The position numbers and the translations under genes were made by a program. DNA of 64,000 bases from Candidatus Buchananbacteria bacterium. Lineage in GTDB: Bacteria > Patescibacteriota > Patescibacteriia > Buchananbacterales > UBA6539. Under the pieces are notes generated by a model that saw only the letters and a program-made list of their open reading frames with translations, searched no databases and was not told the origin of the DNA. The stretch is taken from positions 113,470-177,469 of the forward strand of contig JABWCG010000002.1 in NCBI GenBank assembly GCA_013359225.1, in the 5' to 3' direction. Shown piece by piece: positions 39,901 to 59,609 of this stretch (the first letter of the stretch is position 1; each line of letters starts with the position of its first letter).

Positions 39901-42900
39901 TGTTTGGTGCCAAATGACAACGGGTTGATTGCGTATTATCCGCTTGATGGGGTGGAGGCTGATTACTCCGGAAATGAGTTGGATGGTTTGAAAAACACAA
40001 ACGCTCCGTACCTGCCAGGCAAGTTTGGTCAGGCGGCGAATTTCTCAAGTGCTGATGAGTGGATTGAGGTTGCCAGTAACAGCAAGTTGCAGGTCTCTGG
40101 AGAGTTAACGGTAAGCGCCTGGGTTAATCTTAATGAAGGACTAAGCGGCGCCAACCCTGATGAACGAGGTCTTGGCATTATTGCTTCCGAATATGATTGG
40201 AATAGCGGCGGTGGCACTGAAACCGGCTGGACTTTAGGAGATGACTGGGGATGCAGCAATGCCGCCGGCAGTCCTTGTCCACCCGCCGATCAAATTTACT
40301 TTTCGGTTTTTGGTTCGGGCGGCTCGGTAGTTCGTGCCTATGCTAATAATTTTGCTCAAAACTATCTAGACCAGTGGGTATTAGTAACTGGTGTGTTTAA
40401 GCCTGGGCAGTATGTAAAACTCTATATTAATGGTGAAGAAAAATCGAGTACGGCGACAAATATTTCGTCTATTGTTTATAGCGCTGATACACCGCTACGA
40501 ATTGGTCACCGAGCTGATAATGATTATCAGGGTAACTGGATTGGCCGAATTGATGATGTCAAAATTTACAATCGGGCGCTAAGCGCTTCGGAAATTGCCG
40601 GACTGATGAAGCCAAATGTTTTGGAGTGCGTTTTCAATGTGCCGGCCAGAGGTAACCCGCAGCAAACTATTACTGATAATTATCAGTCGGTCGCTGAAGG
40701 CCGTAGCGTGTATGTTGGTGCCACTAATCGTCGGGCCAATGCGTTATGGTCGGATATTTACTTGATGTCCTATAGCCAGGGTGCGTCAAATAATACCATT
40801 GAAATTTTCAATCGGTTGCTTGATCCGGAACAGCTGACTGGCCGTTGGAGCTTTAATGCAAACGTTTCAAACCATCGGGTTTGTGATATTTATGGCTACT
40901 TTGAAGACACGACTAACATCTGTAGTGGTATTGGCACGTCCAATTTTGATTATTGTTCAACACTAGGAACCCCCGCCGCCTGTAATAATGACGCCGTTAC
41001 GTATGGCTGTTATTGGGATAGCCAGTTTGAAGTTTGTCTGGGTAAGATGTGTGAAGCAATTTATTGTGAAAATGATTTTGAATGTCCGAACTTAAGTTGT
41101 AATGCCAATAAGGAAAAAATTGTTCGCGATGCCGAGCGGTATGGTGACTTGCGTGATTTGCAGCTGGCCTTAAATCGATACGGCCAGACTAAGGGTGGTT
41201 ATCCGACCCTGGGCGGCGGTACCTACGTTCCAAACACGACGTTCTCGCAATGGCCAAGCTGGCAGCAGACGCTTGGAGCGGACTTGGGCGGGCGGCTATA
41301 TGTTGATCCGATTAATCGTTTTGTCGGTTGTTCAGATCATTATTGCGATGATAATGAAAGCGGTACTATTGACTCGGGTGAACGAACATTCTGTTTGGTT
41401 GGTGATGTTGATGCTTGCAGCAGCCGGCCGTACCTTTGTCTGGCGATTGATCCAGATCAGGAAGTAACTTGCTGGGATGAAATTACCAAGCAGTTCAGCT
41501 GCCCGGCTCAAATGTTCTCGTATGCCTATAACGCCATTAACGGCGGTGGTGACTACGCGCTTTATACTTCTTTTGAATATGATCAAATTGGCAGCTGGCG
41601 CAGTTTGCCGGGGTATTTCTGTGATACCAATAATAACGGTTCAATTCAAATCGATCAGGAAACAATCCGCTGTACGGTGAATGCCGACTGTACCAGCGGT
41701 GCCTGTTTGGCTTCAGCGGAAGCGGATTTATATGAATTGCCATTAACATCAACTGATGTTGAGTGTCGTGAATTAAACTTTACTTTGGATGCGGCAACAA
41801 TTAGCGGGGGAGTGAGTCCGGCTGAGTGCGCTGCCCGACGCTGTTATGGCGGTACTAATGATCCGGAAAACGATGAGTGTAATAGCGGAGAGGTAACTGA
41901 ATGTCCGGATTCCGGTCCTGGTACGTATTGTACGGGCGACGCTGATTATGATGGCATTTGTGATGTGGATGTCGGAACCGATAACTGTAATCCGTTCCTG
42001 GATTGTAAAGCTAACCCTCGTGATTGTTATAATCCTGATCAGCGCGATAGCGGAGGTATCCCCGGAAAAGGAGACGTTTGCGACGCGACGTGCGGTGCCG
42101 ACACCGACTCTGATGGTGTTTGCGACAGTTCGGATACTTGCCGCAACGTGTATAATCCGGCCAATGCCAGCTGTCTGGATGGCCATAGCAATCGAACCAA
42201 TGGTCAGTGTGATTATGACCTGGACAACATCGGCGACGCGTGTGACCCGTGTACTGATTTAGACCGTGATGGTTTTTGGGACAAAAATACTCCCGCCAAC
42301 ACCTGTTTGGCCGACAACTGTGCGGTAGGTCTGACCGTTTCAAATGATCGTTTTGGTTATTGCAGTGGTGATTTATCTATTCAGTGTAGTCCGGGCGCGG
42401 CCGGCAATACCATTTGTGCGGGCGCTGGAGCCGGTAGTTGTGTCCAACAGACTGGTAGTCTGGCTACTTATAATCCGTACCAGGAAGATTATGACGGAGA
42501 CGGCGTGGGATATATTTGTGATTTTTGTATTGATTTTGACGGCGATAGTCATGGTGATTATCCGTTTTATACCAGTTCAATGTTCGTGACAACCTTAACT
42601 CCTAACCAGCAGCAACATTTTAGTAGTTGTACTTCCGGCACGGCTTGGCCGGGCAACCCGGGAAATATTAATGACATTGACAACTGTCCGGGCGGACCGT
42701 TTGGTGCTGAATGTACAGATGAGTTCGGCATTGAAGTTTCTTGTTATAACCCCAGCGGCACGGCTTGGGAAGACCTGAATGGCACAAGCCACACCGGACA
42801 AAAAGATTTTAACCTAGATGGTATTGGTGACATTTGTGATGAATTTCGTGTTGGACTGGTTAATTGTGGCGACGGTATTACCGACCCGGGAGGCGGGGAA

Positions 42901-45900
42901 GCGTGTGACTGTGGTAAGTATGCCCTAACTTCCGATCCCTCAAGCCCGATTGTCTGCAGTACGATTAACGACCAACCCTGCAATCCCGGATATGATTCCA
43001 ATGTTGGCAATGGTTTGAATAATTGTAATTGGTGTTACCGCTGTCAGGAAGTAAAGAATGAAGAGGCGGGATATTGTGGTGATGATATCGTTCAGGCGCC
43101 TCAGGAAAACTGTGAACGTGGCAACGCTGGTTGTGATAATTCCTGCCAAAATTTTGAGCCGGCGGAATATTGTGACGCCAATGGGTATGATTCGGAAGTT
43201 ATTCATTTTAATTCGCCCACCGGCCAAACTTCTCATAATTTCTTAAATACCACTCCGGTTTACTTTTATATTCCGGAATGTAGTATCACTAACAGCACAG
43301 AGGTTAGTTTTGATATTGATATTACCGGCTCATTGCCGGATACGGGTATTGTTTTTGTAACAGATGTTTCCGGCAGTATGGCCGGCACCCGAATTACTGA
43401 CGCCAAGGCAGCAATAATTAATACTATTAATGATTTTGCTGCTACCGCCTTTGCCGGTAAAATTCATATTGGTTTGGTGAGCTATTCCACTGATAAAAGC
43501 CTTGATTCACCATTGGTGAAGGTTGATAACCCCACTAATGTCCAAAACTTGATCGCTAAAGTCAACGCATATGATGCCGTTGGCGGTACTGAACCGGATA
43601 AAGCAGTTCAGGAAGCAACTACAATGTTAGGCAGTTTTACCGGTAATCGTATTATGATTTTTATGACGGACGGTGATTCTCATTATACTTATGGTAATTA
43701 TGGTCCAGGTGAACCAGTCTGTTATGGCAGCCTTGATCACGGTAGTAACTGTCACGTAGTGCCAGTCTGTGAACATACGTGTGCGTATACTTGTAATGGC
43801 TCTGCTTGCCAGGAGTGCACAGCGACAAATATTTGGGGAGCCTGTACTACTTGGACAAATCGTTCGGGAACCTGCTGTCCTGATTGTCCCGGTAGTGTAG
43901 CGTATGAATTTACCTGTTCAGCCGCAAGTGTTTGTACTGGCTGTATTGCGAGCTCATCTAGTTTTACAAATGATTCTGATATTGCCAAGGGCGCACCTTA
44001 TAATATTGTTATTTATGGCGCGGCTTTTACGGGAGGCACTCAGACCGCTAACCCCACAGAAGTGAATTTAACTTCTTCTAACTGTCTTGGTGGTTCATGC
44101 AGTTCGAATTTCTGTAATAGTGGGTATTGTTTTGGTGAAGGTGGTTTAACTTTTGAAGATATTTATGGTGCAATTTATGATCAGATTGTTGAGGAGTTGG
44201 GGTATAGTTTTTCCGTTCTGGTTGATGGTGTTATGACAACTCCGATTGATTTGCCATATCAATCGCCCACGGGCGGTAGCTATCCGAATCAAACTATTGA
44301 TTTACCAAGTAACATTTGTACCAGCGGCACGGTTAATCCGTCTTATCCTGATTTTGGCCAACACACCTTGCAATTGGTTGGGCTGCCAAGCGGCATTCAA
44401 GCCAGTTTTAGCGGCGCGGCGGTGAATTATTGTACGACGTGTGATGAAGATAATGACGGCGTGATGGACGCGTCTTGCGGCGGCGCTGACTGTAATCCGG
44501 CGAACGCTAATATTCCGGTTGCGGAGTTAATTGCCGCCGGTAACTGTACTGACAATATTGATAATGACTGTGATGGCACTAAAGACGGAGCGGATATCGG
44601 GTGTGTTGATCCCGGAGGTGGGGGAACAATCCAAGAAGGAATTGGCAACTGTGCTGACGGCATTGATAATGATGTTGATTCCCGAACTGACTGCGCTGAT
44701 CCTGAATGTGTCGGAAAGCCCGGCCCTAACGGTGTGACTTGTTGCCAGGTGGGAACTGATTGTTCAACTTACGGCACGGGGCAATGTAACGCCTGTTCTA
44801 ACAATGTTTGTGTTGCGGTAACGGCCATTAATGGCAGTAATTGCGAAGGTACTTGCAGTTTTTGTAGCAATGGTACTTGTGTTAATCGCGAAACAGGTGA
44901 CGGTCGCGAATGTCCGGCCGGTTGGGCCTGTACTGGTCCGGCGGCAACAGCATACTGCTCGCCAAATGTTTCAGCTGAAAATTGCAGCCAAGCCGGCGAT
45001 GAAGACGGTGATGGTTTGGCCGATTGTGCGGACGTTGACGATTGTGACGGCCATACTGCGCCGGATGGCGGCATTTGTTGTACTGATAGTTTTGACTGTG
45101 GTGGTACGTGTCAGACTTGTTCGCCCACTGCTAAGCGGTGTGTACCTTATACCGGATTAAACGGTGGTCTGTGTTCTGGCGCCTGTACATATTGTAGTAA
45201 CGGCAGCTGCGTTGCCCGAACTAATGGCGACGGGCTTGAATGTCCGGTTGGTACTGTTTGTTCTGGTATGAGTTGTGTTGATCCGGGCGCTTCCAATGAT
45301 TGTACGGTGCCATCCTCAAAAGTTTGCCCATTCCAGCAGGGTGTTTGTAGTGGTTCGCGGGAAAATTGTGTGGCGCCGGGTGTCTGGCCGGGCTGTGATT
45401 ATCAAACATATGTAAACCATGCCGCCTCAACCGGCAAAACATATGAGGCTGGATTTGAATCACTTTGTACGGACGGTCAGGATAATGATTGTGACGGGCA
45501 GACTGACAGTGCCGATTCTGATTGTGGCGCGGTTTGTAACGATAATGGCACTTGCGACGGAGCGGAGAACTGTTCTAACTGTCCGGATGAATGTGCTTGT
45601 CTGCCGGGACAGTTGTGCTGTGGCGCGGCGACGTATAGCTGCGAAGTTCCGGATTGTAATGCTAATATTGATTGTAACGACAGCAACGCATCAACAATTG
45701 ATGTCTGCCAGGGTGCGGCGACTTGTAATGCAACTTGTATTCATACGCCGATTACGGCTTGTAGTAATGGGGACGGGTACTGTCCGGCCGGTTGTACGGC
45801 GTCTAATGATACTGACTGTGCTCCGGTCGCCGCATGTCAGGATACGGATGGCGGCAGCACGGTGTATACCACCCAGGGAACGGTTAGTGACGGCGTTGGC

Positions 45901-48225
45901 GGTGCCGTATTTGCGCCAAGAACTGATTCGTGTTCCGGCAATGTTTTAACGGAATATGGCTGTAACGGTGCCAACTTTACTTCATCAACCTATAATTGTG
46001 CCAGCGTTGCAAATACTATTTGTAGCAATGGTGCCTGTGTTTTACAGGCGGGAGTTAATAGCTGCAGCGACTCTGACGGCGGCGCTAACTATACGACGAT
46101 TGGCACGGTTTCCGGACAAGTTGATAGTGCAAACTATACTCATACTGATCAATGTGCCAGCGGCACCACTTTAACTGAATGGACTTGCAGTGGCACTCAG
46201 GCCGTTTCTTCGTCGCCAGCTTTTGACTGTACGACGCTTGGTGCCGGCTATACCTGTAGCAACGGCCGTTGTATTGCTCCGCCGCCAGTTTTTGTAAATT
46301 ACTATTGTAATACCGACGGTGACAGCGCGGTCAGCAGTTCGGTAACGATTAACTGCCAGCAGGGCACTGTTAATTGTCCGCCGGCCGGTCAGGGCTGTGT
46401 GACCGCACCAGGCACTGATTGTAATGATTCTAATTCTCAAATCTATCCAGGCGCCCCGGAGACTGCCTGCAATGGTGTTAATAATGACTGTGACGCTCAA
46501 ACCGATGAAGATTATGCTGTTATTTCCGGTCCAACGTGTGGTGTTGGCGCCTGCCAGACCACTGGCCAGCTCGTTTGCCAGAGCGGTACGATTACGGATA
46601 CTTGTACGCCCTTGCCGCCTTCAACTGAAGTGTGCGGTGACAGCGTCGACAACGATTGTAACGGAATCGTTGATAATGGTTGTATAAACGAGTGCACTCC
46701 GGGAGAACAAATTTCGTGCGGCGCTTTGGATCCAGTAAACTACAAGGGCGTTTGCGCTGCTCCAACAATTACCTGTAACGCTTTAGGCGCCTGGCCGCGA
46801 ACTGAATGTACGGCCCAAAAGAAAACCAGTGAAGTCGGTTTTTGTACGGATAATTTAGATAATGATTGTGATGGTTTTGCTGACTGTCAGGAAACCACTG
46901 ATTGTCCGGCGGGTAACGTTTGTTCCGGCAACTGTTTAGCTGGTGCGACGTGTAATGTTAGCGCCGGACCGACACAGTTTGACTGGATTTGTAATGCTCA
47001 GCCAGCGGCTTTTTGCGGCGGCACTGGCACGGCGTGCGGCTTGTGTGTTGAGGTTTCAGCTGGTAATTTCCAGTGCCAATCAAACGCTTCGGCCTGTAGT
47101 GGCGGTGCTGGGTATTGTGGTGTCTGTCAAGATCAGGGTGGCGGCGTGAATTTCAGCTGTGCACCAAACAATAATGCCTGTACGGCAGTTTGTACAACTT
47201 GTAGCAGCTCAACATTGTCGTGTGTTACTGTGGTGAATAATCAAGATACTGACGGCGCAAACCAGTGTCATGATACGGTTGGCTGCTCCGGTACGTCGTG
47301 CTCATGTAGCGTTGCCGGCGTTTGCCAAAACTGTGAAGATAATGATCATGACGGTTTATGTAATGAAATTGATGTTTGTCCGTATGATCCGGATAATGAC
47401 TTGGACAATGACGGTCTGTGTGCAGTTGGTTGTTTTAGTGGCCCGTCTCGTTTTGGCTCGCTAACCAACGGGTATATTTGTGATGCGGCCGCGTCCAATG
47501 TGTTACGCGACACTTGCCAGGGCGGCAGCAATCAGGACAGTGGCGGCTTGGGTGGCGTGCCGGACGACTGTGAGATCAATAGCTGCAAGGTGGTATTTGG
47601 CGCTCAAGACTACCTAAATATTTATATCAATGGTAAACTGGTTACTGGTAATTTATCTTTGCCGCAATATGTAAGCGGCAACCCGCCGGCGGATGTGATT
47701 GACAACGTGTTTGTCAGCCTTGATGATTATATTGCGTCCGGTGAAAACGTTATTGCAATTGAAGCTTACGTCGAAAAAGCCCGCGGTTCATATCCAGATT
47801 ACGCTCAGGCATATCGTCAGATTAGGGGAGCGTTTGCCAAGGTGACTGATCCGAGCTGTACTACCACCGGCTGTGGTTTATGTGATGCGTCCAGTTTAAG
47901 CGGCACGGCTTTAAGGACCGATCCGGTTTCCGGCAGTACGAATACTCCGGATATGCCGCTGAAATGTTTAGTGGTAAATGATACTACTAGTCCGGCGCCG
48001 ACAAACTGGAACAAGGTTGGTTTTAGCGAATCCGGCTGGTCTGATAGCGCAAACGGTTCAGCGCAAATTACTAATCCGTTCCAAGAAATTGAAGAGCGGC
48101 TCTGGAGTTCAGCCTACTATAGCAGCGTAACCAGTCCGCGCTACAACAGTCCGAAAGCGGTTTGGGCGGGCGGTAATTATACTTCAACTAGCAAGATTTA
48201 CTGTCGCTATACTTTCATTAAATAA
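30955..48225 (+). CDS. Giant (5756 aa) multidomain surface adhesin-like protein with a TrbC/VirB2-like N-terminal pilin/anchor module. It also has IPT/TIG-like Ig domains, Myxococcus-type cysteine-rich repeats (two clusters), a LamG/ConA-like lectin domain, thrombospondin type-3 Ca-binding repeats, a VWA domain with MIDAS, and many MopE-like 'CxDxxDNDCDGxxD' metal-binding motifs.
   Basis: A single 17,271-nt ORF has no stop codons. I recognise these motifs directly:
- CxxxCGDGxxxxxEECDDGNxxxGDGCSxxC repeats at about 35233-35700 and 36958-37560
- LamG-like 'LIAYYPLDG...KLYINGEEK...DDVKIYNRALSASEI' at about 39925-40610
- TSP3 'NPDQRDSGGIPGKGDVCD', 'DYDGDGVGYICD' and related repeats at about 41930-42850
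- VWA 'IVFVTDVSGSMAG...MIFMTDGDS' at about 43330-43690
- MopE-like motifs scattered across 44400-46900. Confidence 0.7.
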   Translation: MIPKKSKIKKLILPIVFGLVLGSFLVGSSVLALETGLGYGTFSGLGTQDLRVSVMNVVRAILGFLGVLAIVIIFYGGFIWMTAGGNADRIATAKKILTNAVIGLVIIFTSFAITSFVINQLINATGAGGGGITPGSCDEPSDVGAVNGCYVCTDFGSNYGWQVDCSINGCCPGPAQCGVVSITPSSPPNQPMNAVVRVRFNLPTITGVDEIQVIDTTTGNPVAVNRTVVGNVVEIRPTAFCAAPQDALNCFPANTTFNIAMNSGSIQCGGQNLVCGGFPDPCQGSFTTGDFVDIAGPTVELVDRQICQGTTNELRALVNDDYGIDNVQFFDTTYGVLISTDTNVSVPPEGFATGNWDTSTYAINEFVTVEARASDYDSHVATDQLQFTIRAGHCCNAVQDGDETGLNCGGNDCEACNPVIEWVSPLNGEQGNLITVHGRHFGDIPGTVTFLGAPNDGGADNQDGLNPASINPQCSNYWTDTEIVTVVPDAQDGPIMVRANNGTVDTTNELPGNTIADFDRNDVERPGICTVVPSSGEPGDAVVIHGLRLDAGSEVYFSSVLAGGTPVADGLMVTGATVPNLDPAQVGLRVKNQTQFSNPKTFSVGDANAPGQFQCSSDQLTCSPDQSKCTPDKFCNSSCNCEPRQTCDTNTGTPSCEPSQGLCDPGWFCYNPLPDGTHQPDPNKLACHCYQAQFCDDPTLAADVQNPACHPNDGACPDNYTCDPNSNCTCQPVSSIGDDSAYGWFFQSGIKPGSCSNEAGICDPNSALCNNGETCNPTTCNCEPTTQFACSSDPNVCSPDPDLCETGTFCNQTCQCETLVPCDADPNSPSCEPSACPQSYFCYSASVGDPGYDAKKLDCYCYPGILCDGDISTPVCDPDNDFCPTDYECNPNSCFCEAQVKVSDSSTYTWFFNTTSFGPRVVESCNRSNTCDIDSYSSPSPYNVSGTRAGGYTVSGARPDDGAIPVDSIITAMFTTEMVENSINETSVIVLRCNEASQPFNPTSCGAQQIIDDNGIDVHGCDYLGEAVTCFDFEPSALLTKNYWYQVTLNTSQIFGTNGVNLIGNSIDNNYRWVFKTRDSDELSRVACVYVEPTYQTAYNLGAEHDWNAYVSPEDFVCVLMNPDRSCTWDWTTSDGRATVIDQNGNEATTQALAETLPDPPVDVIASCTFSDGQKDGEGKLTIDLTSPYVIDKFPDCGTACLNARIGATFSRAMDAVSVTDAMTLYICYNNPNCEIGPANEVTSFSKPTAPAPDEAPNTFVGDMPCFDVNDDGKYDYCLLPDTYYRVVINNTAVSANDNKPLAGLNFDDPTLGGTGDLDSYSWIFKTQADAGLCLPDRIDVFPQDEVTPVDTTINYASRPRTAGDACDPEFGQRLNPYIWSWDYDTNLVSRQFDNPFCSGYEVANLLSTAPQNYCTERLPGSLRQSCGNNVIEIGESCDDGNLVNGDGCSNSCLHEGTVTPTCGDGKIGAGEECETPGSNYCGADCLWVGNTDYDLEVCGNGIVELSEMCEYPNTPGCGATCLLSGTTGAAICGNGVIDRGEECDEAERLNGDAPSSGDYNGDGISCGPTCLIENRGIGVCRSVATNKFDFTQNGGSCNTGYVAVPLNTATGNSNVGSVCGNRITELGEQCDLGGRCSDNNKPCTVSNLSNCANSATATCEPRDTYCFDPGNATDGQTCPTPGSACGTSGVCIANTCTVECLNAGYPSGFYSDNISPYQIAAATKDGETYIQSWIGGYSPVDTGPMGEGHLLVGNGGGNQFVIVERWPDCGSACLNADIGGRFSKSADPNTVNDLQAIDLGADRIFLYECGLDYSCAIDSLEPIEVSVDSYIEEYVNDAFRINLPLFYNLIDHDNNPSTPMVNALLPNTNYRVVVRNTVTSAEGLALTGLNFDDPYYDYQNPDTGSRLDSHSWVFRTQDTSEICSLDSVNVNPDDYYSESDASVRYSSEPRSEPDVCDPRYGQRLNPFYYDWNWDDEEVTGNPTPPPTFLNSAEFALPLRDGCGNALLQFGEDCDDGNLDNGDGCSSVCLNEGTTAPTCGNNKIDRGEECEPPSTGYCGANCLLIGNDNYTPIALGGYRLDDVCGNGVVEPGEECDEGTEPNGNEADGCTDYCRYTGSVPAALSICGDGQIGLGEECDDADFSNGSPVASGDGCSGTDPIAACTGLDRTACTAFPAANTCYWTGSTCKTRPCLVENRNVAICRSDRAGEFDFNQSPAACEDGYDPYNLTSVSGNNNFETPICGNRVIEEGEECDLGGRCSDNGRRCIPTDLSNCANPKTAVCELALGICTSDGTTCTVIGSACGSGGTCFSTGCSAECLNAGAIEDSLLQDTLIDPYQVVNTLSVPTVLAEVNEEIKAFATIQPNAVGVGLLHVVPGSQVDFAVIGHQPAIGATNQCLNVGIWALFSRPLNTETLSADSIRLCQGGDCSLVKNYSYRIVQGECGDDSFCHFPEHLSDVDSFGVCHNDFDCVGGQLIVRSLNTDTGFLDPNQDYEVRVDQNNLQDINGMTLAEANTCNGQTSCEWGFSSGTDFCECEYVSVSINPTTGGSETVKDLFTCAGDDCGSGTVSPFDDDAANGNPATEQNLAGNQHLYDTVCYDIHNNEGGRIPLLPTGLRFEWAVFPNDDLIYLTDSDATDFINDASFVTPNNKNGDSDVFITAYEYHCGDGPNFCDPQSAGACGDCGGDKAVNQTVRVTNFMCNNPWPGVEVFEDSDTNCDDANNCYDTNFTMLYCRDQGQEGVHDDLPPLYEDPLVLGNNPASPAIKDFIFTFASTGVNRTVNDRTPSNKTWTGGVGSNYQFTVAQTGNYAVKIDGYNYPTPGWGNSADLSSRVQPNPALFDSNVNYNGFNIDVYLRTGTCSASPAQKSGTAVLLPYDETNPQTGSVSLGQLTAGETYCMEFRWTNDWCKCNPECLASGGTLDDQCDANFHFLGWQVISENTSNDAIGIRVLENPLHLSPTTWYSSGLCGGVAEFDSLCFSDADCLVPNDNGLIAYYPLDGVEADYSGNELDGLKNTNAPYLPGKFGQAANFSSADEWIEVASNSKLQVSGELTVSAWVNLNEGLSGANPDERGLGIIASEYDWNSGGGTETGWTLGDDWGCSNAAGSPCPPADQIYFSVFGSGGSVVRAYANNFAQNYLDQWVLVTGVFKPGQYVKLYINGEEKSSTATNISSIVYSADTPLRIGHRADNDYQGNWIGRIDDVKIYNRALSASEIAGLMKPNVLECVFNVPARGNPQQTITDNYQSVAEGRSVYVGATNRRANALWSDIYLMSYSQGASNNTIEIFNRLLDPEQLTGRWSFNANVSNHRVCDIYGYFEDTTNICSGIGTSNFDYCSTLGTPAACNNDAVTYGCYWDSQFEVCLGKMCEAIYCENDFECPNLSCNANKEKIVRDAERYGDLRDLQLALNRYGQTKGGYPTLGGGTYVPNTTFSQWPSWQQTLGADLGGRLYVDPINRFVGCSDHYCDDNESGTIDSGERTFCLVGDVDACSSRPYLCLAIDPDQEVTCWDEITKQFSCPAQMFSYAYNAINGGGDYALYTSFEYDQIGSWRSLPGYFCDTNNNGSIQIDQETIRCTVNADCTSGACLASAEADLYELPLTSTDVECRELNFTLDAATISGGVSPAECAARRCYGGTNDPENDECNSGEVTECPDSGPGTYCTGDADYDGICDVDVGTDNCNPFLDCKANPRDCYNPDQRDSGGIPGKGDVCDATCGADTDSDGVCDSSDTCRNVYNPANASCLDGHSNRTNGQCDYDLDNIGDACDPCTDLDRDGFWDKNTPANTCLADNCAVGLTVSNDRFGYCSGDLSIQCSPGAAGNTICAGAGAGSCVQQTGSLATYNPYQEDYDGDGVGYICDFCIDFDGDSHGDYPFYTSSMFVTTLTPNQQQHFSSCTSGTAWPGNPGNINDIDNCPGGPFGAECTDEFGIEVSCYNPSGTAWEDLNGTSHTGQKDFNLDGIGDICDEFRVGLVNCGDGITDPGGGEACDCGKYALTSDPSSPIVCSTINDQPCNPGYDSNVGNGLNNCNWCYRCQEVKNEEAGYCGDDIVQAPQENCERGNAGCDNSCQNFEPAEYCDANGYDSEVIHFNSPTGQTSHNFLNTTPVYFYIPECSITNSTEVSFDIDITGSLPDTGIVFVTDVSGSMAGTRITDAKAAIINTINDFAATAFAGKIHIGLVSYSTDKSLDSPLVKVDNPTNVQNLIAKVNAYDAVGGTEPDKAVQEATTMLGSFTGNRIMIFMTDGDSHYTYGNYGPGEPVCYGSLDHGSNCHVVPVCEHTCAYTCNGSACQECTATNIWGACTTWTNRSGTCCPDCPGSVAYEFTCSAASVCTGCIASSSSFTNDSDIAKGAPYNIVIYGAAFTGGTQTANPTEVNLTSSNCLGGSCSSNFCNSGYCFGEGGLTFEDIYGAIYDQIVEELGYSFSVLVDGVMTTPIDLPYQSPTGGSYPNQTIDLPSNICTSGTVNPSYPDFGQHTLQLVGLPSGIQASFSGAAVNYCTTCDEDNDGVMDASCGGADCNPANANIPVAELIAAGNCTDNIDNDCDGTKDGADIGCVDPGGGGTIQEGIGNCADGIDNDVDSRTDCADPECVGKPGPNGVTCCQVGTDCSTYGTGQCNACSNNVCVAVTAINGSNCEGTCSFCSNGTCVNRETGDGRECPAGWACTGPAATAYCSPNVSAENCSQAGDEDGDGLADCADVDDCDGHTAPDGGICCTDSFDCGGTCQTCSPTAKRCVPYTGLNGGLCSGACTYCSNGSCVARTNGDGLECPVGTVCSGMSCVDPGASNDCTVPSSKVCPFQQGVCSGSRENCVAPGVWPGCDYQTYVNHAASTGKTYEAGFESLCTDGQDNDCDGQTDSADSDCGAVCNDNGTCDGAENCSNCPDECACLPGQLCCGAATYSCEVPDCNANIDCNDSNASTIDVCQGAATCNATCIHTPITACSNGDGYCPAGCTASNDTDCAPVAACQDTDGGSTVYTTQGTVSDGVGGAVFAPRTDSCSGNVLTEYGCNGANFTSSTYNCASVANTICSNGACVLQAGVNSCSDSDGGANYTTIGTVSGQVDSANYTHTDQCASGTTLTEWTCSGTQAVSSSPAFDCTTLGAGYTCSNGRCIAPPPVFVNYYCNTDGDSAVSSSVTINCQQGTVNCPPAGQGCVTAPGTDCNDSNSQIYPGAPETACNGVNNDCDAQTDEDYAVISGPTCGVGACQTTGQLVCQSGTITDTCTPLPPSTEVCGDSVDNDCNGIVDNGCINECTPGEQISCGALDPVNYKGVCAAPTITCNALGAWPRTECTAQKKTSEVGFCTDNLDNDCDGFADCQETTDCPAGNVCSGNCLAGATCNVSAGPTQFDWICNAQPAAFCGGTGTACGLCVEVSAGNFQCQSNASACSGGAGYCGVCQDQGGGVNFSCAPNNNACTAVCTTCSSSTLSCVTVVNNQDTDGANQCHDTVGCSGTSCSCSVAGVCQNCEDNDHDGLCNEIDVCPYDPDNDLDNDGLCAVGCFSGPSRFGSLTNGYICDAAASNVLRDTCQGGSNQDSGGLGGVPDDCEINSCKVVFGAQDYLNIYINGKLVTGNLSLPQYVSGNPPADVIDNVFVSLDDYIASGENVIAIEAYVEKARGSYPDYAQAYRQIRGAFAKVTDPSCTTTGCGLCDASSLSGTALRTDPVSGSTNTPDMPLKCLVVNDTTSPAPTNWNKVGFSESGWSDSANGSAQITNPFQEIEERLWSSAYYSSVTSPRYNSPKAVWAGGNYTSTSKIYCRYTFIK
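34531..37922 (+). repeat. Diverged internal tandem duplication inside the giant gene: two ~1.6 kb units (34531-36066 and 36247-37922)
   Basis: Protein segments align between the units:
- FPDCGTACLNARIGATFSRAMD / WPDCGSACLNADIGGRFSKSAD
- LPDTYYRVVINNTAVSAN...SYSWIFKTQ / LPNTNYRVVVRNTVTSAE...SHSWVFRTQ
- CDPEFGQRLNPYIW / CDPRYGQRLNPFYY
- both end in ...TVECLNAGY / ...SAECLNAGA. Confidence 0.7.
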
Positions 48226-52926: not shown

Positions 52927-53086
52927 AGTAGTCTTTACAAGTTATCCTCATAGACAACAAAAAAAAATAGGACTAAAATAAACAGTACCCCCAAAAAAAT
53001 TTAAAACCAAAATAAAACAGGCTTCGGGAGGTTTAAAATTTTAACTACATAAGGCAAAAAATGTCTTATTTTTTATCGCTCAAAAT

Positions 53087-55465
53087 ATGATATTTGGTGT
53101 TGGAGAATCAAAACTAAAGCTTACCAAGAATGCTTTAAAGGTCTTGGAAAGCCGATATTTATTGAAAGATAATGACGGCAACGTAATTGAAAAGCCGATT
53201 GAAATGTTTAGGCGCGTTGCCGGTTTTATTGTAAAAGCGGAAGATAAGTATGGCTTGACCCAGGAAGAAAAAGATGACCTGGCTAAGGCTTTCCTGGAAG
53301 TGATGGTTGATTTTGAATTTTTGCCAAACAGTCCAACCTTTACCGGCGCTGGTACGCCTTTAGGGCAGTTGTCAGCCTGCTTTGTGCTGCCGGTGGGAGA
53401 CTCTATGGAAGAAATTTTTGAAGCGATCAAAAATACCGCTTTAATCCACAAATCCGGTGGCGGAACTGGTTTTTCATTTTCTCGTATTCGGCCGGCCAAA
53501 GATCCGGTGAAGTCCACTAGCGGTTTGGCATCGGGTCCAATTTCTTTTATGACCGTTTTTGATGCTGCGACCGATACGGTGAAACAGGGTGGCACTCGTC
53601 GTGGAGCTAATATGGGCATTCTGCGGGTGGATCATCCGGATATTATGGAATTTATTGTCGCTAAGGAAGATAACAATCGACTAAACAATTTTAATATTTC
53701 AGTGGCAATCACCGACAAGTTTATGGATGCGCTTGATAAGGGTGAAGAATATGATTTGCTCAACCCCCGTGACGGCAGGGCAATCGGTAAGTTAAACGCC
53801 AAAGAAGTGTGGGACAAAATTATTGATCACGCCTGGAAAAACGGGGACCCTGGTGTTATTTTTATTGATAAAATCAACAAACATAATCCTACGCCTCATG
53901 TTGGTAAAATTGAAAGCACCAATCCGTGTGGAGAACAGCCGCTGTTACCCTATGAATCTTGTAATTTAGGTTCAATTAACTTGGCCAAATTCGTTAAAGA
54001 AGGTGAAATTGATTATCAGCGCTTAGCTTTTGTTGTACAAACAGCAGTCAGGTTTTTAGATGATGTGATTGATATGAATAAGTATCCAATCCCGCAGATT
54101 TCTCAAATGACCAGAGCTAATCGTAAGATTGGTTTAGGGGTAATGGGTTGGGCTGACATGTTGGTTGATTTAGGTATTTCCTATAATTCAAACGAGGCGA
54201 TTGATTTGGCTGAAAAAGTAATGAAATTTATCAAAAACACAGCCGATCAGGCGTCGGTTGTTTTAGCTAAAGAAAAAGGAGTATTTCCTAATTTTGAAGG
54301 CAGTATTTATGACACGCCAGATAGCACCGGAATTAGAAATGCCACCAGAACCACTATCGCGCCAACCGGCACTATCAGTATTATTGCTAACTGTTCTTCC
54401 GGGATTGAGCCGCTATTTGCTTTGGCATATGTTAGAAAATCGCGCATCGGTAAGAAAGGCGATGACTGGGTTGAGTTAGTAGAGGTTAATCCTTATTTTG
54501 AAGCAGTTGCTAAAGAACGGGGATTTTATTCCAAAGAACTAATGGAAAAAATTTCTCAAGTTGGCTCGATCCAGCACCTTGATGAAGTGCCAGACGATGT
54601 GAAACGAGTATTTGTCACCTCTCACGACATTACGCCGGAATGGCATATTCGAATGCAGACTGCTTTTCAAAAATATGTTGATAATGCCGTTTCTAAAACC
54701 ATCAACTTTCCTAACGCCGCTACTCGTGATGATGTCGCCAAAGCGTATTTATTGGCGTACGAGAATGATTGCAAAGGAGTAACTATTTATCGGGATGGCA
54801 GTCGAGATGTTCAAGTTTTAACAACCGGTCAATCGCACAAAAAGGAAGAGGCTCCAAAGGAAACCACTACTCCTGCTGCGCCGTTTTATAAGCGCAAGCG
54901 CCCGATGATGATGCGCGGCACAACTTATAAAGTAAAAACGTCGTATGGTGATTTGTATATCACCATTAATGACGACGAACAGGGTAATCCCTTCGAAGTG
55001 TTTGCTACTATTGGTAAGGCTGGCGGATTTTTTTCAGCCAAGTCAGAAGCAATTTGTCGTTTAGTTTCCTTGGCGTTACGCGCCGGCATTCCGGCCCAGG
55101 AAGTAGTCAGTCAAATTAAAGGTATTCGTGGTCCGATGCCGTCTTGGGGTGAAGGGGGAATGATTTTGTCGCTTCCTGACGCTATTGCTCAGATTATTGA
55201 AAAACATCTCAGTCAAAATCAGCAGCGGCTGGAATTAGAATTTCATAATGGCAAAGTGACCAAAGAACAGTTATCTAAAACCCCGGCCTCCTATGATCCG
55301 GCTTCATCTTTGCCGGTAGATAGCGCCAAGCCTTCCAATGGCAACGGTAATCGGGAAATTGCCGATTTTGGTACCGCGCCAGAATGTCCTGATTGTGGCA
55401 ATATTTTGGAAATCGCCGAAGGTTGTTTGAAGTGTCGATCCTGTGGCTTTTCCCGCTGCGGGTAA
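53087..55465 (+). CDS. nrdJ: Adenosylcobalamin-dependent (class II) ribonucleotide reductase NrdJ with a C-terminal Zn ribbon
   Basis: The class II RNR core includes the active-site 'TNPCGEQPLLPYESCNLGSINL'. The C-terminal CPDCGNILEIAEGCLKCRSCGFSRCG segment is a Zn ribbon. Confidence 0.9.
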   Translation: MIFGVGESKLKLTKNALKVLESRYLLKDNDGNVIEKPIEMFRRVAGFIVKAEDKYGLTQEEKDDLAKAFLEVMVDFEFLPNSPTFTGAGTPLGQLSACFVLPVGDSMEEIFEAIKNTALIHKSGGGTGFSFSRIRPAKDPVKSTSGLASGPISFMTVFDAATDTVKQGGTRRGANMGILRVDHPDIMEFIVAKEDNNRLNNFNISVAITDKFMDALDKGEEYDLLNPRDGRAIGKLNAKEVWDKIIDHAWKNGDPGVIFIDKINKHNPTPHVGKIESTNPCGEQPLLPYESCNLGSINLAKFVKEGEIDYQRLAFVVQTAVRFLDDVIDMNKYPIPQISQMTRANRKIGLGVMGWADMLVDLGISYNSNEAIDLAEKVMKFIKNTADQASVVLAKEKGVFPNFEGSIYDTPDSTGIRNATRTTIAPTGTISIIANCSSGIEPLFALAYVRKSRIGKKGDDWVELVEVNPYFEAVAKERGFYSKELMEKISQVGSIQHLDEVPDDVKRVFVTSHDITPEWHIRMQTAFQKYVDNAVSKTINFPNAATRDDVAKAYLLAYENDCKGVTIYRDGSRDVQVLTTGQSHKKEEAPKETTTPAAPFYKRKRPMMMRGTTYKVKTSYGDLYITINDDEQGNPFEVFATIGKAGGFFSAKSEAICRLVSLALRAGIPAQEVVSQIKGIRGPMPSWGEGGMILSLPDAIAQIIEKHLSQNQQRLELEFHNGKVTKEQLSKTPASYDPASSLPVDSAKPSNGNGNREIADFGTAPECPDCGNILEIAEGCLKCRSCGFSRCG

Positions 55466-56010: not shown

Positions 56011-56039
56011 GTTATCCACCGTCGTGATTCTTGACAGGC

Positions 56040-56300
56040 TCACTGGTAGTTCTAAAATTTAATTACTTAAAAATTTGGTTGCATCTTAATTTTCCGAAGT
56101 AAGGTTACATTCCTTCGCTGACCCGCAACTGTGAAGTCTTTTTTCACCCCCTAGGTGGAAAAAGAATAAGCCAGGTCGAGAAAATAAGAGCTTAATTAAC
56201 CCACGTAACTCTTCGAGGATATGAGAGGCATCGTGTCGCTGGTTTTAAGCCAGCTCTTAAAATTGCTCTAACTACGAGGAATTTTTTTATTTAATAATTC
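56040..56300 (+). promoter_or_regulatory. Cobalamin (B12) riboswitch in the 5' leader of the 56314 operon
   Basis: It contains the highly conserved core 'GCTGACCCGCAACTGTGAAG' (consensus gCUGcCCCCGCAACUGUAA). Preceding it are GGTTGCA...AAGGTTACATTCC (the GGUG.AA.UCC region). After it come a B12-box-like 'AAGCCAGGTCGAG' and a 3' hairpin GCTGGTTTTAAGCCAGC, which may be the expression platform. Confidence 0.6.
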
Positions 56301-56313
56301 ATAACTAACAGAT

Positions 56314-58110
56314 ATGATTAAAAAAAACGCATTACCTATTTTTCGAATAATCGTTGTTTTTTCACTGCTGCTGCAGCCGGTGTTTGTTTCGGCCAGTTTG
56401 TCGGGCGCTGTTAGTTATTTGGAAAGTCAGGTTGATGATCCTTGGATTACAATGGCACTCGTGGCTTCTGGCCAGACGAATATCCCAACCGGTCATTTAA
56501 AACAAGTTTCCGGAACAAGTGCCACTGATTATGCTAAAACGATTTTAGCCTTAGCGGCCCTGGGCAAAGACCCCTCGACATTTGGCAACGTTGATTATGT
56601 CGCTGCGTTGGAAGATACATTTGACGGCACACAAATTGGCGACGTGAATTTGTTAAATGATGACATGTGGGGCATATTAGCATTGGCAAGCGTTGGCAAA
56701 AAAACTTCAGCGGCAGTTACTGCCACTAAAACCTACTTATTGTCAAAACAAAACAGCGACGGCGGTTGGAGTTATTCAGCGGGAGCTGGTTCTGATACTA
56801 ACGATACCGCTGCTGCAGTCATCGCGTTAATTGAAGCAGGAGTTGGAGCAAATAATGAAGTAATTACTAAGGCGTTAGCGTATATCAAATCAGCGCAAAA
56901 CAGCGACGGCGGCGTTGGTTATCAACCGGGCAACGGCTCAGACGCCGGCTCAGACGCTTGGACGATTTCAGCCTTAATTAAAGCGGGAGTCAACCCGAGT
57001 GGCTGGACGAAGAACAATATCAGTCCGATTCAACACCTTGAATCCTTGCAAGACGAAGATGGCGGTTATTGGTGGGTTACCGAAGGTACCTCAGAATGGA
57101 ACAATAAAGCTATGACTGCATATGCGGTTATCGCTTTAAGCGGTGCCACCTATCCGGTTGGGTATTATCAATCAGGAGCTGCTAACGATGGTGAATTTCA
57201 TTTGAGAATTGAAGGTGCTAGTAATACTATTTGTGATACGTTTGTCGCCGGCGTTACAGCGCTTGATTTAGTTAAAAATGCCGCGGCGGAATGTGGATAT
57301 TCATATACGATTACTCAGGAGTCATTTGGTCCGTATTTGCGAGAAATCGCTGGCGAGACAGCTTCCGGATTGAATGGGTGGTTATACTTTGTAAACAGTG
57401 CTTCACCAATCGTTGGCGCGGCTGATTACCATTTAGCGTCTGGTGATGAAGTGTTGTGGTATTTTGGTGAGTGGGGAGTTATGCCGACGCGCTTGAATGT
57501 GAGTGAAACTCAAGTTGATCCCGGCCAGGCAATTGATGTAGTGGCTGAATATTTTGATGGCAGTTCTTGGCGTCCGGTTTCCGGTGCAACTATTAAGGTG
57601 AATGATGAAGTCCGGCAAGCGGGTACTAACGGTACGCTTGCCCTACAAATTTATGAAAATGGTATTTATCGGATTTATGCCGACCATGCTGGGTATGTCA
57701 GAAGTAATACAGTGACAGTGACGGTTGGTGACACAGTTAATCAGAATGTTGGTTTACAGGTTGAGATTAATCAGGGCACGGCTGGCGTTATCGGCGGTGA
57801 GGCAATTGCTTTAGTGGTTGATGCTTCTGATATTGATTTTGGCCCATTGGCTCCGGGACACGGCAGTGAGGCTGAGGTGGTCATATCAAATCAGGGAACA
57901 GTTAATCTTGGTGTTGGCACCCAGGTCAGCGGTGACGTGGTTTTCACCAAGGGTTTAAAGATTAACGACGCCGCTCATGCCGAGTATGCCGACACCCTGG
58001 TTGCCGGCCAGAGTAAATCAACAAAAGTTGTTTTAAATGTACCTAGTGATTATCTGGCTTCTGGCGTCAAAACGGGAGAGCTAACTTTTTGGGCAACTGT
58101 TCAACCGTAA
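56314..58110 (+). CDS. Secreted transcobalamin/intrinsic-factor-like putative cobalamin-binding protein. It has a signal peptide, a prenyltransferase/terpene-cyclase-like alpha/alpha-toroid, a DUF4430 (transcobalamin-like C-terminal) domain and two beta-sandwich domains.
   Basis: The repeated 'SDGGWSYSAGAGSDTNDTAAAVIALIEAG', 'SDGGVGYQPGNGSDAGSDAWTISALIKAG' and 'EDGGYWWVTEGTSEWNNKAMTAYAVIALSG' match alpha-toroid repeats. The DUF4430-like segment is '...GPYLREIAGETASGLNGWLYFVNSASPIVGAADYHLASGDEVLWYF'. The gene lies directly downstream of the Cbl riboswitch. Confidence 0.5.
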   Translation: MIKKNALPIFRIIVVFSLLLQPVFVSASLSGAVSYLESQVDDPWITMALVASGQTNIPTGHLKQVSGTSATDYAKTILALAALGKDPSTFGNVDYVAALEDTFDGTQIGDVNLLNDDMWGILALASVGKKTSAAVTATKTYLLSKQNSDGGWSYSAGAGSDTNDTAAAVIALIEAGVGANNEVITKALAYIKSAQNSDGGVGYQPGNGSDAGSDAWTISALIKAGVNPSGWTKNNISPIQHLESLQDEDGGYWWVTEGTSEWNNKAMTAYAVIALSGATYPVGYYQSGAANDGEFHLRIEGASNTICDTFVAGVTALDLVKNAAAECGYSYTITQESFGPYLREIAGETASGLNGWLYFVNSASPIVGAADYHLASGDEVLWYFGEWGVMPTRLNVSETQVDPGQAIDVVAEYFDGSSWRPVSGATIKVNDEVRQAGTNGTLALQIYENGIYRIYADHAGYVRSNTVTVTVGDTVNQNVGLQVEINQGTAGVIGGEAIALVVDASDIDFGPLAPGHGSEAEVVISNQGTVNLGVGTQVSGDVVFTKGLKINDAAHAEYADTLVAGQSKSTKVVLNVPSDYLASGVKTGELTFWATVQP

Positions 58111-58113
58111 ATT

Positions 58114-58593
58114 ATGTTTAGATCAATTGGAGCATTACTTTTATTGATACACTTCCTGGTTGGGCCGGCGGCTGCGGCGGTTGGCGTGGCGGTTAAACCG
58201 GTGCAGCTTACTTTGCAGGGAACAACGATGCGGGCCGCGGCGGGAGAATTTTTGGTGGCGAATGTTGATCAAGTTCCGGCATTGTATCAGGTGTCAGCGG
58301 ATCAATTTGGTGATATAATTTCATTTGATTCGGCTGATTTTCAGCTGCAGCCTCAGGAAACCAGAATTGTTAAGTTTAAAGCTTGGTTTGTCAGTCCAGG
58401 AACTTTTCAAACCAATATTTCAGTTGCCGCTAAACCGCTTGGGAACAGCGGTCTGGCCGCCGCTTCAGGCGTTAAAGTTCCGCTTACCATTACGGTGGGT
58501 GGAATTTCACTCATGGCGTTGATTGGCTTAATCATGGTTTTTTGTTTAGTCTTGGCAATATTGCTGATGATAAGATTAAAAAAGAAAAAATAA
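58114..58593 (+). CDS. Small surface protein with an N-terminal signal peptide, a beta-rich domain and a C-terminal TM anchor ending in KKKK
   Basis: MFRSIGALLLLIHFLVGPAAAAV...GISLMALIGLIMVFCLVLAILLMIRLKKKK. It is translationally coupled to the upstream gene, with a 3-nt gap. Confidence 0.4.
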   Translation: MFRSIGALLLLIHFLVGPAAAAVGVAVKPVQLTLQGTTMRAAAGEFLVANVDQVPALYQVSADQFGDIISFDSADFQLQPQETRIVKFKAWFVSPGTFQTNISVAAKPLGNSGLAAASGVKVPLTITVGGISLMALIGLIMVFCLVLAILLMIRLKKKK

Positions 58594-58624: not shown

Positions 58625-59056
58625 ATGAAGTTAATCGTTCGGGCCGTCATCATTGTCGCGATTTTTATTGCGGGATTTTTCGTCGGCAATCAATATCAGA
58701 CAATTTTTGACAGCAGTGTTAAACAAACTGAAAACCAATCAACAGCGATTAATGTCATGATTGATAGCGGCAAAGAGATTAAACTGTATGAAAGAGTTTC
58801 TATTGCCGAAAATGAAACGGTATTTGAATTATTGAAAAAGATTGCCGATGAAAACAATCTGGAGTTAGGCTACAAGGATTTTGGCGGTGAGCTGGGCGTC
58901 ATGATAGAATCAATCGGCGGTGTTAAGAATGACGTTAGCAGTAACGGGTTTTGGCAGTATTGGGTTAACAATTCTTATGCTCAGGTTGGGCCAAGCAGCT
59001 ATCGGATACACGCCGGTGATTCAATAACCTGGAAATATGTCACTAATCAATTTTAA
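58625..59056 (+). CDS. Membrane-anchored standalone DUF4430 (transcobalamin-like beta-domain) protein
   Basis: It has an N-terminal TM helix. The segment '...LELGYKDFGGELGVMIESIGGVKNDVSSNGFWQYWVNNSYAQVGPSSYRIHAGDSITWKYV' parallels the DUF4430 segment of the upstream gene. Confidence 0.45.
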   Translation: MKLIVRAVIIVAIFIAGFFVGNQYQTIFDSSVKQTENQSTAINVMIDSGKEIKLYERVSIAENETVFELLKKIADENNLELGYKDFGGELGVMIESIGGVKNDVSSNGFWQYWVNNSYAQVGPSSYRIHAGDSITWKYVTNQF

Positions 59057-59069
59057 TAACTCATATACT

Positions 59070-59609
59070 ATGAATACCAAGTTTAAATTAGCCACTGCAG
59101 CCCTATTAATTGTTTTAGGAGTAACCTGTCGTTTGTTGCCACATTTGTGGAACTTTGTTCCCGTAACTGCCATTGCTTTGTTCGCCGGATTTTATTTTGG
59201 TCGGCGGTATGCTTTGGTGTTGCCGTTAGTGATCGCTTTCGTCAGCGATTTATTTCTTGGGTTTTATCAGTGGCAATTAATGCTGGCAGTGTATCTGAGT
59301 TTTATGGTGGTCGGTATGATTGGTTTTATGGTTAGAAAATACAAGAACGTTGAAACAATTATAGCCGCCAGCATCAGTTCGTCGGTTTTGTTTTATTTAG
59401 TAACTAACTGGGCAGTCTGGCGATTTTCGCCGTGGTACGAAAAGTCTGTTAACGGATTACTTAGCTCTTATGTTTTGGCCGTGCCGTTTTTTAGGAATGC
59501 CCTGCTGGGTGATTTATTTTATACGGCGGTATTGTTTGGCTCGTATGAATTAGTGCATTTGATGGTTAGCCGCCATCGTCGTCTGTCAGCATTGGTTGAA
59601 ACAAAATAA
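59070..59609 (+). CDS. Small polytopic membrane protein; candidate ECF S-component-like (CbrT/BtuM-like) corrinoid transporter
   Basis: It is about 180 aa with 5-6 TM helices (LIVLGVTCRLLPHLWNFVPVTAIALFAGFYFG...). It is the last gene of the riboswitch-controlled unit. The function is assigned by context only. Confidence 0.3.
   Translation: MNTKFKLATAALLIVLGVTCRLLPHLWNFVPVTAIALFAGFYFGRRYALVLPLVIAFVSDLFLGFYQWQLMLAVYLSFMVVGMIGFMVRKYKNVETIIAASISSSVLFYLVTNWAVWRFSPWYEKSVNGLLSSYVLAVPFFRNALLGDLFYTAVLFGSYELVHLMVSRHRRLSALVETK

Follow-up and report, generated by a model that had tools for sequence, protein, structure and literature searches.

The window analysed here is a stretch of 64,000 nucleotides from the forward strand of contig JABWCG010000002.1 of a Candidatus Buchananbacteria bacterium. 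Between its cobO gene and a gene for a putative B12-binding protein of 598 amino acids (start codon ATG 56314) it contains an element which, judged from its sequence, is a cobalamin riboswitch missed by standard annotation. It is likely that this is a functional, RF01482-like riboswitch of Cbl-II style with its own promoter, which would control a putative four-gene B12-capture operon by corrinoid-dependent attenuation. A cobalamin riboswitch at this place had been proposed in a first-pass annotation made from the sequence letters, and the proposal is borne out by a covariance-model match, by orthologous leaders scoring above the Rfam gathering threshold and by covariation. As several orthologues pass that threshold, the element belongs to a known riboswitch type. 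On this evidence the riboswitch is real but ordinary, present in an ultrasmall bacterium of the candidate phyla radiation (CPR), and its predicted 'off' hairpin is unusually weak compared with those of its relatives.

The RF01482 model (adenosylcobalamin (AdoCbl) riboswitch aptamer; gathering score 50 bits in Rfam 15) matches positions 56067-56236 of the forward strand over its full length (model positions 1-149 of 149) with 42.1 bits. The E-value is 2e-6 in a permissive scan of the local stretch and 2.4e-4 when the whole 64-kb window was searched on both strands with all 4227 families. The first-pass annotation had suggested RF00174 as the model to be checked; this model gives an overlapping match of lower score, which is removed by clan competition. 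The expected covariance-model signal is thus significant by E-value, with RF01482 as the better match, although it lies below the curated cut-off. At gathering thresholds the whole window yielded four tRNAs only and the riboswitch was not reported, and the permissive scan of the window gave no riboswitch candidate besides 56067-56236. No open reading frame of at least 60 amino acids was found in 56011-56313 on either strand. The minimum free energy z-score of the 291-nt region is -2.05. The parts of the aptamer, with the evidence for each, are as follows:

56067-56236 (+): aptamer of the cobalamin riboswitch together with P13; RF01482 match over the full length, nhmmer homologues, covariation
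56081-56094 (+): closing helix P1/P3, 5' strand, pairing with 56180-56191; Rfam alignment
56099-56116 (+): P4 hairpin (G-AAGG / CCUU-C, loop UUACAUU); covariation
56119-56127 (+): P5 and L5, the L5 CCCG at 56122-56125 kissing L13; kissing-loop covariation
56129-56174 (+): P6 with a plain 11-bp hairpin extension (CUUUUUUCACC/GGUGGAAAAAG); Rfam alignment, predicted fold, P6 covariation
56168-56180 (+): B12-box-like AAGCCAGGUCGAG after P6; invariant columns AAG.CAG, Rfam alignment
56180-56191 (+): closing helix, 3' strand (GAAAAUAAGAGC); Rfam alignment, covariation test
56202-56235 (+): P13, with lower stem CACG/CGUG, upper stem CUCUU/GAGAG and L13 at 56214-56222; fold, covariation

The helices form a four-way junction (P3-P6) with about 14 nt ahead of the closing helix. 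A P2 arm and a P7-P11 extension are both missing, and P6 is a single continuous hairpin, features shared with the Cbl-II riboswitches (env8 Cbl-IIa; Cbl-IIb; PMC7367189), in which P6 carries a hairpin only. Under the scheme of that paper the architecture is Cbl-II-like, an assignment made from sequence at the Cbl-II level, from which IIa and IIb, and with them a selectivity for methylcobalamin/hydroxocobalamin or for AdoCbl, cannot be told apart. The core and flanking elements named in the first-pass annotation were located, CCCGCAACTGT at 56122-56132 and GCTGGTTTTAAGCCAGC at 56238-56254, and the conserved core of clan CL00101 (..CYGC.RCUGU.. with the B12-box AAGYCAG) is present. The position of the element, in a sense-strand leader 3' of a promoter and ahead of B12-related genes, is also that expected for this clan. 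The partner of L5 is the CGAGG of L13 (56214-56218), the pairs being C56122-G56218, C56123-G56217, C56124-G56215 and G56125-C56214 with A56216 bulged; a bulged nucleotide is likewise found in the kissing loop of env8 (PMC10327014). With RF01482 (clan CL00101) the window shares the four-way junction, the short P6, the B12-box-like AAGYCAGGUC and a 3' hairpin loop whose consensus, UCGAGG, equals the window L13. It differs from this family in a closing helix with two bulges or mismatches, in a 19-nt insertion which lengthens P6 and in an irregular P13, which has a loop of 9 nt and a 3x4 internal loop. Taken on its sequence the element shows every structural feature tested for a cobalamin riboswitch of the RF01482 type and falls short in the curated bit score alone.

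For comparison, 168 loci around homologues of the 598-aa protein were collected; single loci are cited by their L numbers. Using the window leader as query, nhmmer found homologous leaders directly 5' of the homologous gene in about 20 loci, with E-values down to 6e-24. RF01482 reaches the gathering level in eight of nineteen such loci (65.8, 61.3, 58.2, 57.6, 55.6, 54.0, 52.6 and 51.0 bits) and RF00174 reaches its own gathering threshold in two more of these nineteen. In a second locus set RF01482 scores above gathering in L167 (67.5 bits), L163 (52.5 bits) and L161 (50.2 bits), and below the cut-off, like the window, in L166 (43.0 bits), L162 (41.2 bits) and the L165 copy that lies 5' of the homologue (37.7 bits). 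Moreover, a ..CCGCARCUGU.. or GCGCUACUGU core occurs at most 700 nt upstream in 59 of the 85 homologue loci with enough upstream sequence.

The covariation test was made by projecting P1/P3, P4, P5, the P6 base, upper P13 and the L5-L13 contact of the window on a MAFFT alignment of 33 non-redundant leaders. Standard pairs fill 85.0% of the cells, compared with 70.1% in shuffles, and the covariation score of 0.341 (0.120 in shuffles) was reached by 0 of 500 shuffles; when the 3' partners were slid by 1-3 columns as a control the score was at most 0.143. P4 is paired in 98% of cells with double-sided changes at all five pairs, the bases of P5 and P6 are paired in 100%, and the upper P13 stem is paired in 89%, with three pairs changed on both sides. 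In the closing helix ten of the twelve tested pairs have double-sided changes, yet only 59% of cells are paired, a low value that reflects the poor MAFFT alignment of distant clades in this part. All four pairs of the L5-L13 kissing loop are formed in 33/33 leaders, the variable pair being G-C in 18, C-G in 13 and U-A in 2. Among 55 leaders tabulated, L5 CCC goes with L13 GG, UCC with GA and GCC with GC, with one G.U. The alignment has 24 invariant columns, including CTG..CCGCA.CTGT and AG.CAG. From these comparisons of sequence we regard the aptamer fold and its L5-L13 kissing loop (CCCG 56122-56125 with CG(A)GG 56214-56218) as shown.

Outside the core the leaders are less uniform. Large branched P6 insertions were seen in L081, L084, L088, L090/L091 and L168 (e.g. 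CACCCCGAG...CUCGAGGGGUG), and L4 insertions in L089, L096 and L166; peripheral elements thus vary widely inside one orthologous riboswitch lineage. Some relatives also have a second cobalamin riboswitch, at L165:2409-2562 and L091:2055-2247. The former (65.4 bits) directly follows cobO and precedes an unannotated gene of 332 aa, upstream of the riboswitch of the capture operon.

Most relatives have, 3' of P13 (ACUCUU-CGAGGnn-..GAGAGU..GGUG), first a hairpin whose sequence varies completely and then the strongly conserved ACUCCC-UCGAAAN-GGGAG-A-U6, which abuts the ATG. A hairpin with a U-run is present in all classified relatives, 38-69 nt past L13 (53-69 in most), and in an automated survey these terminator hairpins have energies of about -6 to -16 kcal/mol. 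In L166 the terminator hairpin and U-run lie about 75 nt 5' of an ATG bearing its own AGGAGA, so that only terminator action is possible in this locus. The most conserved platform feature among the relatives is a complementarity of the terminator 5' arm and loop to the P13 5' arm and L13 (UUCGAGG with CCUCGAA). For this duplex the energies have a median of -7.9 kcal/mol and the z values against shuffles a median of -3.1, and in many leaders 0/300 shuffles were as good; automatic parsing, in the survey and in this comparison, took the wrong hairpin in about ten leaders, so that these medians are approximate. Isolated platforms fold either as P13, spacer and terminator or as a strand-swapped long hairpin, with similar energies.

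The window has a variant platform in common with its two closest relatives only, L161 (65% amino-acid identity) and L162 (64%). It comprises:

56238-56254 (+): spacer hairpin GCUGG-UUUUAAG-CCAGC (GCTGGTTTTAAGCCAGC), -9.5 kcal/mol; at this place a hairpin is found in all relatives examined, with unrelated sequence
56259-56292 (+): distal AU-rich hairpin AAAAUU-G-CUC / GAG-G-AAUUUU with loop UAACUAC, followed by U7; candidate attenuator/terminator by positional homology

The first-pass annotation had taken the GCTGG...CCAGC hairpin and a weak U-tract as the platform, and this has to be corrected: that hairpin is the spacer, and the equivalent of the terminator is the next hairpin with its U7, at 56259-56292. 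As a terminator the spacer hairpin was rejected, since it is followed by UCUUAAAAUU, which is no U-tract, since the hairpin at this place in the relatives is without a U-run (except in L088) and since a second hairpin with a U-run always follows. The distal hairpin is positionally homologous to the CUCCC-UCGAAAN-GGGAG+U6 of the relatives. Its arms, CUC(U)/GAG(G), mimic those of P13, CUCUU/GAGAG, and the window platform is predicted to be bistable, with two conformations at -23.6 and -23.0 kcal/mol, 0.6 kcal/mol apart. The leaders of the window, of L161 and of L162 all keep the U-tract, while the sequence between it and the ATG differs (25 AT-rich nt in the window, about 9 nt in the other two), which favours a terminator over a translational role. 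The clear intergenic terminators of this genome are AU-rich hairpins with A-tract and U-tract arms.

The element would most likely act as a corrinoid-repressed transcription attenuator. Binding of a corrinoid, presumably AdoCbl made by the upstream CobO, would allow the kissing loop to lock P13; P13, the spacer hairpin and the distal hairpin with U7 (56259-56292) would then form, and transcription would stop before ATG 56314. Without ligand P13 would be unlocked and its strands could swap with the near-identical arms of the distal hairpin, so that RNA polymerase would read through. From the known roles of the families, CobO would adenosylate the imported corrinoid and NrdJ would consume AdoCbl. 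By sensing this product the switch would limit further capture, a negative feedback on uptake with nrdJ-cobO outside the switch.

A comparable logic has been described for the Priestia megaterium metE corrinoid riboswitch, which is transcriptional and repressing; there the kissing loop stabilises P13, which otherwise swaps strands with the terminator, as shown by compensatory mutagenesis (PMC10327014). As in that system, P13-5' resembles terminator-5' and P13-3' resembles terminator-3' in the CPR leaders. In contrast to it, most CPR relatives conserve the pairing of L13 and P13-5' with the terminator 5' arm and loop (CUCGAA), not that of P13-3' with terminator-5', and a spacer hairpin stands between P13 and terminator. 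The leaders of the window type differ further in being without CUCGAA and in their much weaker predicted terminator. A Kennedy-type antiterminator of P13-3' with terminator-5' was considered and rejected: its duplex would be only 4-6 bp long in the window, at -7.9 kcal/mol (z = 0.0), and is modest in the relatives, with an approximate median z of -1.0. The spacer loop UUUUAAG and a CUUAAAA further 3' are complementary over 7 nt in the window, but an H-type pseudoknot formed by them was rejected: it is sterically implausible because zero loop residues would be left over, and L161 and L162 keep it only in part. An anti-aptamer pairing of UAAGAGCU (56185-56192, closing helix 3' strand) with AGCUCUUA (56252-56259) was also discarded, being found in the window and partly in L162 and absent from L161 and the canonical leaders.

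Several observations weigh against a working attenuator in the window itself. The 42.1 bits of this copy do not reach the curated RF01482 bit score. The distal hairpin has -4.9 to -5.6 kcal/mol and is the weakest of those classified, one spurious low-complexity call aside; when folded side by side it has -5.6 kcal/mol and the hairpins of the relatives -6.1 to -15.6 kcal/mol, with -6.7 in L161, -8.8 in L162, -6.1 to -10.4 in canonical leaders and -13 to -16 in a distant clade. A simple terminator scan missed it because it is weak, with only three non-A:U pairs. The terminators of the window, L161 and L162 are without the L13-complementary CUCGAA, and the complementarity of L13 to the terminator is at chance level in the window (-3.2 kcal/mol, z -0.3) and in L162 (-2.6 kcal/mol, z -1.0). 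The 3' arm beside the U-tract is paired in both predicted conformations, so the ON state is not cleanly defined. On these comparisons the three leaders of the window type carry a weakened version of the family platform, and a platform partly decayed in this subclade is possible.

Transcription of the leader can be assigned to a promoter of its own, next to which a second conserved motif is found:

56031-56058 (+): sigma-70-type promoter, TTGACA-16 nt-TAAAAT, 11/12 positions matching
56012-56020 (+): DnaA-box-like TTATCCACC, 10 nt upstream of the -35 and outside the RNA; the only TTATCCMCM in the window

The promoter is the best match in 44-64 kb and ends 8 nt 5' of the aptamer match, from which a transcription start at about 56064-56066 is inferred. 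TTGACA-like hexamers are found at the equivalent place in relatives. Consensus TTGACA-17-TATAAT promoters are common in the intergenic regions of the window. The box TTATCCACC agrees with the DnaA-box consensus TTATNCACA. Of 49 leaders 18 contain TTATCC[ACT]C[ACT], 16 of these 18 at 8-11 nt 5' of a -35-like hexamer. The box stays with the promoter even where the end of cobO is more than 100 nt away, and in a distant clade TTATTCAC/TTATCCAC stands directly against TTGACAG. Its conservation beside the promoter suggests that TTATCCACC is probably a protein-binding site, and it looks like a second, protein-based control site.

If the platform has decayed in this lineage around an intact aptamer, the operon would be constitutive or weakly regulated, and the promoter-proximal TTATCCACC may give the real control. 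The weakest distal hairpin of the classified leaders, the lost CUCGAA, the longer AT-rich stretch from U7 to ATG (25 nt against about 9 nt in L161 and L162) and the sub-threshold Rfam score would all agree with such a decay. Nevertheless we consider it rather unlikely: none of the 24 invariant aptamer columns has been lost and L5 is still complementary to L13. Between the window, L161 and L162 the differences in P4, P6 and lower P13 are compensatory, and all three leaders preserve the spacer hairpin, the distal hairpin and the U-tract, which indicates continuing selection on the whole leader.

Translational control, in which ligand binding would sequester the ribosome-binding site, is improbable for the window. 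E. coli btuB and the env8 Cbl-IIa riboswitch are established examples of such control, exerted through the kissing loop and P13 (PMC10327014), and in most relatives the distal hairpin has a GGGAG 3' arm which, at a spacing of 7-9 nt from the ATG, could also serve as a Shine-Dalgarno (SD) sequence. The 'distant RBS' of the first-pass annotation, GAGGA at 56276-56280, is however the 3' arm of the distal hairpin, 34 nt from the ATG. Its GAGG (56276-56279) is the sole SD-like motif of the window leader (17 nt from the ATG in L161 and L162), no SD was found within 30 nt of ATG 56314, and the surroundings of this ATG are AU-rich with no conserved pairing partner. Moreover, an SD-like motif stands at most 25 nt 5' of the start in 5 of the 43 long open reading frames of the window, whose starts sit in A/U-rich contexts; a start without SD at ATG 56314 is therefore normal for this organism. 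With the sole motif remote and the genome largely SD-less, SD sequestration was rejected for the window, and in this the element is probably unlike env8 and btuB.

Two further readings make use of the AUG in L13 (56221; GGAUAUGAGAG), which is found in all three leaders of the window type and is absent from canonical leaders. In the broader one, which we rate as quite improbable, the window, L161 and L162 would have a platform rewired for a nearly SD-less genome. An AU-rich hairpin would replace the L13-complementary terminator, the kissing loop would gate translation of a leader reading frame from AUG 56221 whose ribosomes melt the attenuator, and the DnaA-box-like site (56012-56020) would add a protein input tying B12 capture to nrdJ and DNA replication. 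In the narrower one, still less credible, control would lie in an upstream open reading frame (uORF) of 16 codons that opens at this AUG and ends at UAA 56269-56271 inside the distal hairpin; ribosomes would load only with L13 free of L5, and their passage would melt the spacer and distal hairpins. The frame is open for 16 codons in the window and 12 in L161 and runs in frame into the main gene in L162, and an interplay of a uORF with a B12 riboswitch is reported for M. tuberculosis (PMC11260477). Only three closely related sequences are involved, and in AT-rich DNA chance would be expected to leave frames of this length open; the AUG does not have the A/U-rich context of real starts in the genome, and the peptide is not conserved in L161. 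A uORF from AUG 56221 was rejected as having no statistical support. In L162 (4001-5854) the public call for the homologue (617 aa) starts at the L13 AUG, which lies about 20 codons before the real start and in its frame; the call is probably an annotation over-extension.

A chance resemblance without any riboswitch, to which the score under the gathering cut-off and the MFE z of only -2.05 might point, is effectively refuted and has a negligible probability given the whole-window E-value of 2.4e-4, the homologous leaders that pass gathering, the covariation including the pseudoknot and the fitting genomic context.

The corrinoid-repressed attenuator which we prefer stands between the following genes:

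53087-55465 (+): nrdJ, B12-dependent ribonucleotide reductase; NCBIfam NF006417, 1199.6 bits
55474-56010 (+): cobO, CobA/CobO/BtuR adenosyltransferase; Pfam CobA_CobO_BtuR 6.2e-61, TIGR00708 174 bits (above cut-off)
56314-58110 (+): first regulated gene (putatively), 598 aa, with signal peptide, prenyltransferase-like alpha/alpha-toroid, DUF4430 and C-terminal beta domains; Pfam, structure model
58114-58593 (+): 159-aa protein of the putative capture operon
58625-59056 (+): 143-aa DUF4430 protein; Pfam
59037-59609 (+): 190-aa DUF6580 membrane protein with a sub-threshold energy-coupling factor (ECF) S-component match; Pfam

The gap between nrdJ and cobO is 8 nt, and the whole-window Rfam scan gave no cobalamin riboswitch match upstream of either gene. 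Close relatives with contigs long enough repeat the order (FtsZ)-NrdJ-CobO-leader-capture genes, cobO lies 5' of the switch in every relative examined, and the capture genes follow each other in the same order in L161, L163 and L165-L168, and in L162 up to the end of its contig. The earlier statement that cobO is upstream and outside riboswitch control, with the capture genes behind the switch, therefore agrees with what is found in the relatives whose contigs reach that far, and the arrangement is sensible rather than anomalous. From their association with the riboswitch the four downstream genes form a putative B12-capture/uptake operon and probably scavenge B12. The yvrC riboswitch of Bacillus subtilis likewise directly precedes B12 uptake genes (ABC-transporter operon yvrC-yvrB-yvrA-yvqK), although it has a P2 arm and a hybrid Cbl-I/II architecture (PMC7367189). 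Unlike in that operon, the cargo of the window (toroid+DUF4430, DUF4430, DUF6580) consists of uncharacterised families. Presumably yvqK is an adenosyltransferase and hence under the yvrC switch, whereas cobO of the window is upstream of the switch.

The 598-aa protein has 594 homologues, mostly from CPR/Patescibacteria, and is identical to one from a Candidatus Buchananbacteria metagenome-assembled genome. DUF4430 was detected twice in the operon, with E=2.7e-10 in this protein and with E=3.9e-17. The profile of the 598-aa family gives a weak match to the transcobalamin-2 beta-domain (E=0.018). In the AlphaFold (AF2) model the toroid is predicted with a confidence score (pLDDT) of about 90 and the DUF4430 part poorly (30-60). 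Foldseek with this model found prenyltransferase beta subunits and squalene cyclases, with no transcobalamin among the 50 matches listed; a homology to transcobalamin is unsupported by this fold search. The earlier label 'B12-binding protein' is therefore kept as putative: DUF4430, the weak transcobalamin-2 match and the riboswitch association speak for it, while the fold search lends it no help. For the DUF6580 and the small DUF4430 proteins no solved relatives were detectable by sequence. The toroid part has many paralogues in Streptomyces and other Actinomycetota (L023-L080); the 598-aa protein matches their NCBIfam family, SCO2321 family membrane protein, with E=2.5e-26, and a scan of genome contigs returned mostly such Streptomyces SCO2321-family paralogues and few CPR loci.

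These results do not change what is known of the working of cobalamin riboswitches. They indicate that the Rfam gathering cut-off misses real cobalamin riboswitches of Patescibacteria (the window, L162, L166 and one L165 copy), and a model tuned to the clade would recover such sub-threshold copies. In the literature consulted no description of native riboswitches in Patescibacteria was found, and nothing specific on CPR riboswitches or on DUF6580. The riboswitch association offers a functional label for three poorly characterised proteins widespread in CPR, the secreted toroid+DUF4430 protein, the small DUF4430 protein and the DUF6580 protein, which would form a corrinoid capture/uptake set serving the B12-dependent ribonucleotide reductase in organisms unable to make B12. 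In addition, the leader family is a natural series of platforms, whose terminators range from strong to weak and whose complementarity to L13 is present or absent, and in which the coupling of kissing loop and termination could be studied.

A few observations concern the region upstream. At 52943-52979 (+), TTATCCTCA abuts a TAGACA-17-TAAAAT promoter of nrdJ. The TTATCC box as a site shared by nrdJ and the capture operon was rejected, as TTATCCTCA is not conserved upstream of nrdJ in L162, L163, L166 and L167; TTATCCNC occurs 6 times in the window compared with 8 expected. A terminator-like hairpin, AUAAGGCA..UGUCUUAU+U6, lies at 53049-53076 (+), 10 nt before the nrdJ ATG. L162, L163 and L167 keep this hairpin, as does L166 by way of a compensatory change, and it has no Rfam match; from its conservation it may be an uncharacterised attenuator of the B12-dependent ribonucleotide reductase. 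Further upstream, positions 30955-48225 (+) are a single open reading frame of 5756 codons, which encodes a giant protein.

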